Origin: Fusobacteriia bacterium UBA1095
GTDB lineage: Bacteria; Fusobacteriota; Fusobacteriia; Bac17; UBA816
Assembly (NCBI GenBank): GCA_002313635.1
Contig: DCBY01000005.1
Location: 1 to 51,012, forward strand
DNA length: 51,012 nt
Direction: 5' to 3'
Both the position numbers and the translations under genes were made by a program. This document shows, one piece after another, positions 11,184 through 14,569 of the stretch. Every line of letters begins with the position of its first letter. Positions within the stretch are counted from its first letter, which is position 1. The notes below the pieces were generated by a model that worked only from the letters and a program-made list of their open reading frames with translations, was not told where the DNA came from and did not search any database.

Positions 11184-13490
11184 CTACATTAATACTTTGT
11201 CTAAAACATCTTTAATATAGTATTCTGCAAAGTGGATCTTAACCTCTTTTTTTATCTCCTTAGGAAGATAATCTGCATCTGCTTTGTTACCCACTGGTAG
11301 TATTACCTCTTTAATACCAGCTCTTAGTGCTCCTATTATCTTCTCTTTTACCCCACCTATAGGTAAAACTTCTCCAGTAATTGTAACTTCTCCAGTCATT
11401 GCTACACTCTGCCTAACCTCTCTTTTTGTCAATGCAGATATGATTGCAGTGACAATAGCTATACCAGCTGAAGGACCATCTTTAGGGGTTGCACCTGCTG
11501 GGAAATGTATATGAATGTGCTCTTTGTTAAATTTGCTGCTACTTATGTTTAATTTTGGTGAAATAGATTCAACGAAACTAAGTGCAACTAGTGCAGACTC
11601 TTTCATTACTTCTCCAAGAGTACCAGTTGTTATTAATTTTCCTTTGCCGGGTGCAGTTACAGCTTGAACAACTAAAGCTTTACCTCCAACCGCTGTCCAG
11701 GCAAGACCATTAACAACACCGACCTTCCCTTCTTTGTTGTGCACCTTGTCATCAAGGTATTTTGGTTTACCAAGATATTTTTCTAAAATTTTATCTCTGA
11801 CTTCAATTTTAGATATTTTTTTCTTTATGCTCTTCTTTGCTATTTTTCTAAATATTTTATCTAAAGTTCTTTTTAGATTTCTAACACCAGCTTCACTAGT
11901 GTATTCATTAATTATTTTCAAAAGTGCTTTATTGCCAATTCTTACTTTGAATTTCTTCAATCCATTCTCGATTTTAGACTTTTCTATCAGATACAATTTG
12001 GCAATATTCATTTTCTCTATATCCGTGTAACTGCTCAGGTTAATTATTTCTAATCTATCTCTTAAAGCACAAGGTATCTGAGAAATATCATTAGCTGTTG
12101 CTATGAAAAACACTTTGGAAAGATCAAAAGGTAGATTCAGATAATGATCCAAAAATTCTCTATTCTGCTCAGGATCCAACACCTCTAGTAGGGCTGATGC
12201 AGGATCACCCCTAAAGTCTTGAGCCATTTTATCTATCTCATCTAACAAAATAACAGGATTGTTGGAATCAACGTACTTCAATTCCTTTATTATTCTTCCT
12301 GGCATAGCACCAACATAAGTTCTTCTATGACCTCTTATCTCAGCTTCATCTTTTATTCCGCCAAGAGATATTCTAGCAAACCTTCTTTTCAAAGATTCTG
12401 CTATGGATTTGGCAATAGATGTTTTCCCTACCCCTGGTGGCCCTACTAGGCATAAAACTGTGCCACCTAAATTTTTATTCAACTGCTTCACAGCTAGGAA
12501 CTCTAAAATTCTCTCTTTGACTTCTTTCAAGCCATAGTGCTGTTCCTCTAGAATTTTTTCTGCTCTCTTTATGTCTAATATATCTTTAGTTGACTTTAAC
12601 CAAGGCAGTTCAAGGACCGTGTCTATGTAATTTCTAACAACAGAGAACTCTGAAGAATAAGGAGGCATTTTGAGAAGTTTTGATGCCTCATTTTCAAGTT
12701 TCTCTCTTATATTGTCAGGTATTCTAGCTTTTTCTATTGCTTCTCTTACCTCGTCTGCTTCATCTACAAAACTACCATCTTCACCTAATTCTTCTTTTAT
12801 GGCTTTTATCTTCTCTTTTAGGTAGTAGTTTCTTTGAAGTGATGTCATCTGGTCTTTAACTTTGCTATCTATTCTTTTTTCAAGATCCATTACTTGAATT
12901 TCTTCTTCTAAAATACCTAAAATTTTGTAAGCTCTCTCTTGTGTTGATCCTGTTTCAAGAAGCTCTTGTTTCTGCTCTATATTTATATTTGTATTAGATG
13001 CTATTAAGTCAATTAATTTGTTTATACTTCTTATGCTTCTTATACTCAGAACTAATTCAGGAGATATCTTATTTGATGATCTTAGATACTCTTCAAATTT
13101 TTCTAAAATTTTTCTCTTGATAGCCTCTTCTTCACTATCGTTATTCTCTCTTAACTCTACTTCTTCGTATTCTGCTTCATAGAAATCTTTTTGTTCAGTG
13201 ATATCAAGTAGTTTTACTCTTTTTTCTGACTCAAGTAAAACTCTTACTATTCCATCAGGGAGTTTTGTGCTCTGTATTATATTTACTAAAACTCCCATTC
13301 TCTCTATTCCAGAAGGTATGGAAGGATTATCTTCTTCTATGTCCCTTTGAAGGAAGAGCATCAGCTTGTTGTCTTTAAGAAGAGCAGCCTCAAGAGATTT
13401 AATACTCTGATCTCTTCCTACAAATATTGTTGTTATTACCCCAGGAAATATGACTTCTTTTATTGGTATGAATGCAGCTTTGTTATTCAT
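11184..13490 (-). CDS. lon: ATP-dependent protease La
   Basis: LON N-domain, [29 protein letters not shown] catalytic Ser, GGVKEK Lys. Confidence 0.99.
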
Positions 13491-14569
13491 GACACGCTCC
13501 TAATTAACTTTATCTCATTTGTATCTTCAATACTTTTTTCAGTTATAATAACCTTCTTTATATCTTTATCTGAAGGTACTTTAAACATTACATCTAACAT
13601 TATATTCTCTACTATTGCTCTTAGCCCCCTAGCTCCAGTCTTTCTTTCTAAAGCTTTGTCAGCGATTCCTTCTAATGCTTTTGGATCAAAAGAGAGCTCT
13701 ACCCCATCCATTGATAGTAGCTCTTTGTACTGGGATATTAAGGAATTTTTGGGTTGAGTCAAAATTTTTATTAACATATCTCTATCTACCTCTTCAAGAG
13801 GACTAATTATAGGGGTTCTACCCACAAGTTCTGGAATTATACCAAATTTTATTAAATCTTGAGGTATTACCTCTTTTAGAATAGCATCTCTCTTTTTTTC
13901 TGTTTTAGAAAATCCAATTGACTTCCTGTTAACTCTTCTTTCAATTATCTTTTCTATTCCCTCAAAAGCACCACCTAAAATAAATAAAATATTTGATGTG
14001 TCTATCTCTAAACACTCTTGTCCTGGATATTTCCTACCTCCATTTGGTGGAACTGAAATTACAGATCCTTCAACTATTTTTAGTAAGGCTTGTTGGACTC
14101 CCTCTCCTGATACGTCTCTTGTTATTGATACATTTTCAGACTTACGAGCTATTTTATCTATTTCATCTATATAGACTATACCTATTTCTGCAAGATCAAT
14201 GTTCATATTAGCAGATTGTATAAGCCTTAGGAGAACGTTTTCAACATCATCTCCAACATAACCTGACTCTGTCAAGGTAGTAGCATCTGTTATTGCTATG
14301 GGTAGGTTCAAAACTTTAGATAAAGTTTGAGCAAGAAGTGTTTTTCCTGACCCTGTAGGTCCTATCATCATTATATTACTCTTTTGAATTTCTGTTGGAG
14401 AGCTATCCTTATGAATAATTCTTTTGTAGTGGTTATACACACTAACTGATAGTATCTTTTTGGCTCTCTCCTGTCCTACAATGTATTTATCTAATTTTTC
14501 TTTTAGTTCAATAGGAGTTATAGGAGATCTGAAATTTGATTTGTAATTTGCAAATTGTTTCTCTGTCAT
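13487..14569 (-). CDS. clpX: ClpX ATPase lacking the N-terminal zinc-binding domain (360 aa)
   Basis: [12 protein letters not shown] pore-1, [20 protein letters not shown] loop. Start placed at ATG 14569 after an AAGGGGGA SD; the track's 14626 start overlaps clpP. Confidence 0.97.

Follow-up and report, generated by a model that had tools for sequence, protein, structure and literature searches.

Can a bacterium run its ClpXP protease with a ClpX that has lost the N-terminal C4 zinc-binding domain (ZBD), and do other peculiarities of that ClpX and of its substrates go together with the loss? The question is raised by a window of 51,012 nucleotides, the whole stretch of DNA that was analysed, from Fusobacteriia bacterium UBA1095 (assembly GCA_002313635.1, contig DCBY01000005.1, positions 1 to 51,012 of the forward strand). 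It carries a clpX gene whose product has no ZBD and reads RKY in the pore loop where RKH is canonical, together with a gene for transfer-messenger RNA (tmRNA) whose tag peptide ends in -AVA. An earlier note, made from the sequence of this DNA, had proposed an adaptor-independent ClpX with shifted specificity, plausibly matched to that tag. The ZBD is thought to serve adaptor docking, the recognition of several substrates and dimerisation. The domain is indeed absent, and the evidence points to a natural counterpart of the laboratory truncation ClpX-deltaN that probably arose by reductive evolution, RKY and -AVA being unlinked, lineage-specific changes.

The genome assembly comprises 768 kb in 33 contigs, with a GC content of 33% and an estimated completeness of 92%. 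The clpX open reading frame lies on the minus strand and starts with ATG. The elements that bear on its 5' end are the following:

14590-15159, minus strand: clpP, 189 aa (PF00574, E = 3.6e-82).
14570-14589, minus strand: clpP-clpX spacer of 20 nt with the Shine-Dalgarno sequence AAGGGGG, from direct sequence reading.
13487-14569, minus strand: clpX, 360 aa, without the N-terminal C4 ZBD, from the open reading frame and model matches.
14522-14569, minus strand: N-terminal stub of 16 residues, free of cysteine, in place of the ZBD of about 50 residues, from the alignment to PDB structures.

The stop codon of clpP is found at 14590-14592, AAGGGGG sits 8-9 nt 5' of the clpX ATG, and the spacer is too short to hold a ZBD exon. 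An alternative GTG start at 14626 adds just 19 residues, which are free of cysteine and overlap clpP. The whole protein contains a single cysteine, C186; it therefore has no CxxC motif, and a C4 zinc site is impossible. A Pfam search of the protein returned AAA_2 (PF07724), AAA (PF00004) and ClpB_D2-small (PF10431), and zf-C4_ClpX (PF06689) was absent. In the alignment to the PDB, residue 13 corresponds to position 62 of full-length E. coli ClpX (8e91) and residue 1 to about position 50. Equivalog score, motifs and context class the protein as ClpX, with two non-canonical features, the missing ZBD and RKY. Its score is 546.8 bits against NF003745 (cut-off 359), the match beginning at model position 55 of 418, and 541.8 bits against TIGR00382 (cut-off 370.75), beginning at position 66 of 414. 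Both equivalog models are passed without the ZBD because it is an accessory domain. The nearest other AAA+ family, HslU (TIGR00390), reaches 208 bits, below its cut-off of 362.

A six-frame search of the whole assembly found no PF06689 match, even at E <= 10; the same kind of search gave matches above cut-off in 10 of 14 control genomes. The clpX model identified one gene above cut-off in the genome and only two weak AAA+ matches elsewhere:

Contig G000:C12, about 51.7-54.3 kb, just past the end of the window: ClpB, 847 aa (TIGR03346, 1163 bits, cut-off 1232).
Contig G000:C26, about 42 kb: FtsH, 592 aa.

HslU, ClpA and ClpC were not detected in this search, and the genome thus seems to hold no ClpP partner other than ClpX. 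The earlier note had read the junction correctly, with its 20-nt gap and its ATG backed by AAGGGGG (the minus strand was not stated), and it was equally right about the lack of CxxC and about GGRKYP, with the RKY codons at 14027-14035. Its central observation of a ClpX without ZBD is confirmed by the Pfam result, by the late starts of the model matches and by the many identical contigs described below. The note had named a full-length clpX or a split ZBD elsewhere as what would speak against it; neither was found in the six frames of this 92%-complete genome.

The gene is transcribed, and its sequence has been recovered repeatedly. The identical 360-aa protein is encoded on 104 contigs (NCBI, JGI, Tara, Logan, ENA). 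DNA contigs from independent marine studies show zero differences over 12322-16500, a region that holds lon-clpX-clpP-tig, and two marine metatranscriptome contigs (6.7 and 8.3 kb) span the same genes, also with zero differences. An RNA contig matches the tmRNA identically over 10803-11117. In two marine metatranscriptomes, the assembler depth ranged from about 4,800 to 21,000 for the tmRNA and was 36-61 for the clpX region.

Databases give this ClpX lengths of 360, 368, 369 and 379 aa, and the longer versions stem from a TGA stop read as Trp or from upstream alternative starts. The 369-aa public gene call (P0001) took as Trp the TGA stop that lies inside the ATGA overlap with the lon start (13487-13492). 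The assignment of TGA to Trp was rejected, as under translation table 11 about 85% of the genome is taken up by 461 open reading frames of 200 aa or more, of which 126 end in TGA. TGA is a normal stop, and therefore some pipelines mis-assigned genetic code 4 to this small, low-GC genome.

A sole, clpP-linked ClpX without ZBD is rare in bacteria. Among 40 relatives of the same class, 39 genomes encode a ZBD-bearing ClpX with an open frame of 411-441 aa. The ZBD is missing from the clpX of G001, the other genome of the same order (1.0 Mb, 79% complete), which begins MEGTLLKPIQIKKKLDEYVIGQ, 14 nt after clpP. It is also missing from P0002, a ClpX from a metagenomic relative that is 73% identical to the present one, likewise 360 aa long, and encoded 2 nt after clpP in the order tig-clpP-clpX-lon. 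These three proteins, among which the N-terminal stub is poorly conserved, form one clade of the ClpX tree (support 97/95) with long branches, and one deletion in a shared ancestor would explain this most simply. A scan of metagenome contigs for further members of the order returned ordinary ClpX only, at 57-65% identity and none closer.

Beyond the class, clpX was found in 188 of 194 genomes of the phylum Fusobacteriota, and all of the matches listed, other than those without ZBD, begin at model position 1-9. Of the low-scoring Fusobacteriota genes, those looked at again either have the ZBD region or are affected by a frameshift, a 3' truncation or a cut at the contig end. An even sample of 401 Pseudomonadota genomes, including genomes of 0.9-1.2 Mb, has the zinc finger in 398; two of the three exceptions are without any clpX, and in the third the gene runs into the end of its contig. 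Taken over about 580 clpX-bearing genomes of these two phyla, no clear complete ZBD-less clpX was found outside this order.

Two further candidates were rejected. P0004 (GCA_029782595.1, JARCCX010019545.1, L132, 3286-5224) is a misassembly in which a 45-residue segment is duplicated and the gene falls into two overlapping fragments, an upstream one of 254 aa with ZBD and one of 407 aa without, and P0155 is a truncated gene call. Three catalogue proteins, P0128, P0124 and P0193, resemble complete ClpX with short, Cys-free N-termini; they are unconfirmed candidates whose contexts were not recovered. The best matches of P0128 in the species collection are ordinary ClpX, 62% identical, its own genome not being among them, and P0193 reads YGRKLP where GGRKHP is usual.

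The AAA+ core is conserved throughout. Over residues 17-356, the protein shares 59-64% identity with solved ClpX structures, and its motifs are placed as follows:

14339-14362, minus strand: Walker A, GPTGSGKT, residues 70-77.
14252-14263, minus strand: pore-1 loop, GYVG, residues 103-106.
14153-14179, minus strand: Walker B, IVYIDEIDK, residues 131-139.
14093-14128, minus strand: pore-2 loop, residues 148-159, with the equivalents of E. coli Thr199 and Val202 kept.
14027-14035, minus strand: RKY (R179, K180, Y181) in GGRKYP, in place of RKH.
13910-13918, minus strand: IGF loop tripeptide, residues 218-220, the ClpP-docking element.
13619-13636, minus strand: sensor-2 region, GARGLR, residues 312-317.

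Compared with 177 diverse ZBD-bearing ClpX, in which 94 columns are at least 95% conserved, this ClpX departs at four of the 94, and all four changes are conservative (A84S, V89L, A102S and L261V). Strong purifying selection acts on the gene, and the product looks fully functional as an unfoldase. With the IGF loop present and clpP 20 nt upstream, docking to ClpP is predicted, and the protein most likely still forms hexamers on ClpP. Residue 102 (14264-14266), just before GYVG, is Ser here and in the RKY relative P0002; G001, which has RKH, and 96% of the 177 other ClpX have Ala in this column.

The remaining genes of the locus complete a row that is read on one strand and closed by the tmRNA gene:

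15175-16392, minus strand: tig, trigger factor, first in the row tig-clpP-clpX-lon.
11184-13490, minus strand: lon, 768 aa, its start codon overlapping the clpX stop (ATGA).
10803-11139, minus strand: tmRNA (ssrA), 44 nt downstream of lon (ARAGORN; Rfam tmRNA, 148 bits).

The order tig-clpP-clpX-lon is shared by the contigs of both relatives, P0002 and G001. A looser neighbourhood, with clpX and ssrA on the same strand 5-7 kb apart, occurs also in ordinary Fusobacterium genomes. Promoter and terminator scans of the operon gave site counts not above those of shuffled sequence. The P0002 contig (L068) carries several ankyrin-repeat genes, one of them with a Tox-ODYAM1 match, just upstream of rbfA-tig-clpP-clpX, and its lon is divided into three open reading frames (438, 64 and 242 aa), probably through low-coverage assembly errors; the ankyrin genes and the split lon occupy 1-7800 and 11087-13379. 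The clpX of G001 contains an in-frame TAA at a conserved Lys (ILTxP-K-NS), at about 430-435 on the minus strand of L009 (G001:C59), which reflects either recent pseudogenisation or a consensus error of the metagenome-assembled genome.

The tag reading frame of the tmRNA (11030-11059, minus strand), read by hand and aligned with relatives, is GCA AAC AAT TTT GCA TTA GCA GTA GCT TAA, which encodes ANNFALAVA. Among the other tags read in the class, 28 of 29 end in YALAA, and RKH is present in all of these genomes whose ClpX was read. G001 is ZBD-less, yet it has RKH, and its tag is ANYNRVAQAA. Within the same class, G003 keeps both ZBD and RKH with a drifted tag, AKNNNNLAFAA. The histidine column of the RKH loop in the 177 reference ClpX is His in 157 and Tyr in none.

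A scan for the pattern PPxGGRKYPxQE, with one genome per species over 185,579 species, returned 23 stretches, 22 of which are RKY ClpX genes. The carriers include Bombilactobacillus bombi, Leminorella grimontii, Ethanoligenens, Christensenellaceae, Ruminococcus and Methylococcales sponge symbionts. Wherever the 5' end is complete, these ClpX have the zinc finger with its CxxC...CxxC motif (19 of 19). The tag could be read in 16 of the RKY species and ends in -LAA in 12 of them and in -VAA, -AAA, -IAA or -QAA in the rest; none ends in -AVA. Two cultured organisms combine RKY with a ZBD-bearing ClpX, Bombilactobacillus bombi LMG 32930 and Leminorella grimontii ATCC 33999, and their tags end in YALAA; that of L. 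grimontii is ANDENYALAA. RKY occurs in about 22 unrelated species with canonical readable tags, and it therefore neither requires nor predicts a changed tag. It is a rare but recurrent variant, and elsewhere it seems compatible with canonical -LAA-type tags. The loss of the ZBD, RKY and the tag sequence do not co-vary, and their coincidence in this genome is one event on a fast-evolving branch.

These observations have to be set against three other explanations. One would be an artefact in which a ZBD is hidden by an assembly error, a misplaced start codon, a frameshift or the splitting of the gene over two places. Such cases exist in databases, as P0004 and P0155 illustrate, and gene callers disagree on the length of the present clpX. 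However, the clpP stop lies 20 nt upstream, the upstream frame holds no Cys-rich sequence, and independent DNA and RNA assemblies, as well as all 104 contigs, show the same junction. Two diverged relatives share the architecture, and the six-frame search of the whole genome found no PF06689 match, so that an artefact is essentially refuted. Another explanation assigns the tagged proteins mainly to Lon, with the tag-recognition elements of ClpX and the Ala-Ala end of the tag drifting thereafter under relaxed constraint and the missing ZBD belonging to a wider decay of substrate selection by ClpX. Lon reportedly degrades tmRNA-tagged proteins in Mycoplasma, a precedent said to come from Gur and Sauer in 2008. 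In keeping with such a transfer, lon overlaps the clpX stop and is followed closely by ssrA, both genomes of the order have drifted tags (-AVA and -AQAA, against the YALAA usual in the class), and the G001 clpX has its in-frame stop. Against this, ClpX and ClpP have been kept in close coupling, with strong purifying selection acting on them (no change at 90 of 94 conserved columns), and the tag retains its C-terminal Ala and the ALA core. Ordinary Fusobacterium genomes share the clpX-lon-ssrA neighbourhood, and the linkage is therefore ancestral and not new. G003, furthermore, has kept its ZBD despite a drifted tag that ends in -LAFAA. A transfer to Lon is accordingly considered quite improbable.

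The third explanation builds on the specificity shift that the earlier note had favoured and assumes a compensatory retuning of the pore entrance to the -AVA tag by RKY and perhaps also by the Ala-to-Ser change next to GYVG, resulting in a shifted degron specificity. Its attraction lies in structural and kinetic work. Several RKH loops touch the degron in the recognition complex through His230 and Arg228; in E. coli ClpX, the H230A substitution increases the KM for ssrA by a factor of more than 100, to 140-240 μM, and KM likewise rises when the tag's penultimate residue, Ala, is replaced (PMC7652416). ssrA substrates are not degraded by human ClpX, which has Leu at both 199 and 230 (PMC7652416). 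Both sites are thus sensitive, and a coupling of RKY with -AVA is therefore possible. This genome is alone in its class in having -AVA (31 tags read) and RKY (ClpX of 30 genomes read), Tyr is absent from the RKH column of the diverse ZBD-bearing ClpX, and both RKY proteins of the lineage share A102S next to the pore-1 loop.

Other observations speak against such a retuning. E. coli Thr199 and Val202 bind the C-terminal Ala of the tag together with its alpha-carboxylate (PMC7652416), and the equivalents of Thr199, Val202 and Val154, which hold the terminal Ala and the carboxylate, are unchanged here; the tag still ends in Ala. The unrelated RKY species whose tags could be read, among them a cultured enterobacterium, use canonical tags, the co-occurrence of RKY and -AVA has been seen as a single event, and for P0002, the other RKY relative, no tag was recovered. 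Retuning is judged unlikely on this balance. Distinctly unlikely, too, is the more elaborate version in which H230Y and the Ala-to-Ser change would have co-evolved with the Val-Ala tag end after the loss of the ZBD had ended adaptor delivery; were it true, the lineage would hold a natural orthogonal ClpX/degron pair with a specificity that comes from the pore loops alone. From the distribution of these sequences, we infer that there is no functional coupling of RKY with -AVA. Of the proposal for an adaptor-independent ClpX with shifted specificity, independence from ZBD-docking adaptors is supported, and the match to -AVA is not, as the readable tags of RKY species are of the -LAA type. The co-variation of ZBD loss, RKY and tag that had been looked for across genomes fails on both sides: complete RKY ClpX elsewhere keep the ZBD, and the ZBD-less G001 combines RKH with -AQAA.

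The explanation that is probably correct thus remains a natural ClpX-deltaN shaped by reductive evolution. On this view, the gene belongs to a marine Fusobacteriota lineage with a reduced genome of about 0.77 Mb that is probably host-dependent, and its product is the single, expressed and presumably functional ClpX of that lineage. A 5' deletion in the common ancestor of the order would have taken away about 50 codons of the C4 ZBD, and the start codon 20 nt after clpP would now yield the remaining ClpX-deltaN-like protein. Genome reduction might have removed the regulatory substrates and partners that used the ZBD and so made the domain dispensable, with pore-mediated ClpXP quality control kept under selection. 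Substrates recognised by the pore, such as tmRNA-tagged proteins and proteins with other C- or N-terminal degrons, would still be degraded, whereas adaptor tethering, ZBD-docked substrates and ZBD dimerisation would be lost with the domain. The change from His to Tyr would have come later, on the branch to this genome and P0002, and the -AVA tag end would be a separate lineage-specific change. ClpX activity and adaptor independence are predicted; without a ZBD, adaptors and substrates that dock on it should be unusable. The best-known adaptor that docks on the ZBD is SspB. Its co-loss as the cause of the ZBD loss was considered and rejected, because SspB is absent from all 41 genomes of the class, including the 39 that keep the ZBD.

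Several points weigh against this explanation. A ZBD gene may formally lie on the DNA missing from an assembly that is 92% complete. The order is represented by two genomes in the collection, and the single ancestral loss is deduced from three sequences. The TAA in G001, if real, could mean that ClpX decays in part of the order. The stability of the hexamer without the dimerising ZBD is an assumption, and enzyme activity is predicted from conserved motifs. The tmRNA of P0002 was not found, its 18-kb contig ending 440 nt after lon with no tmRNA on it, and the sensitivity of both contact sites leaves a place for the coupling discussed above.

The significance of the locus lies in the nature of the domain that was lost. 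Nearly all bacterial ClpX carry the ZBD, and this lineage appears to have kept ClpXP without it over long evolutionary time. No new kind of machine or mechanism is revealed. The lineage may instead be regarded as a natural experiment, suggesting that the AAA+ ring and the pore loops suffice for the essential functions of ClpXP, at least in a reduced and probably host-dependent cell. In the literature searched, no account was found of a bacterium in which a ClpX without ZBD is the sole copy and is coupled to clpP, which is absence of evidence only.

Like canonical ClpX (E. coli; TIGR00382/NF003745), the protein has the AAA+ module, all core motifs and the gene order tig-clpP-clpX-lon; unlike it, it has no PF06689 ZBD and reads RKY instead of RKH. 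The ZBD is present in every other Fusobacteriota clpX with a readable 5' end, in contrast to this order. Laboratory E. coli ClpX-deltaN (residues 62-424) degrades GFP-ssrA together with ClpP, with a KM of 1.3 μM (PMC7652416). As residue 13 corresponds to E. coli residue 62, the natural protein begins approximately where ClpX-deltaN begins. It differs from the latter in being evolved and not engineered, in being the only ClpX of its organism and in carrying H230Y, and it is known here from sequence.

Natural homologues without the N-terminal domain have also been described. ClpX3 of Myxococcus xanthus is a bacterial example (PMC11423568). It is a dispensable third paralogue that is encoded apart from clpP, has no RKH and exists beside an essential, ZBD-bearing ClpX1, whereas the ClpX described here is a sole copy, linked to clpP, that has kept an RKH-type loop. 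In yeast mitochondria, Mcx1 has lost the N-domain and works without ClpP (PMC13671032). Mcx1 is eukaryotic and contains a mitochondrial insertion, and the organelle in which it acts has no ssrA tagging; in the present case ClpP, tmRNA and the IGF loop are all present. The RKY ClpX of other bacteria share the same GGRKYP loop and differ in having kept the zinc finger and -LAA-type tags. Among them, Leminorella grimontii and Bombilactobacillus bombi could serve as natural controls for the effect of H230Y, and this lineage offers a natural ClpX-deltaN with an H230Y loop and an -AVA tag that is open to standard degradation assays.

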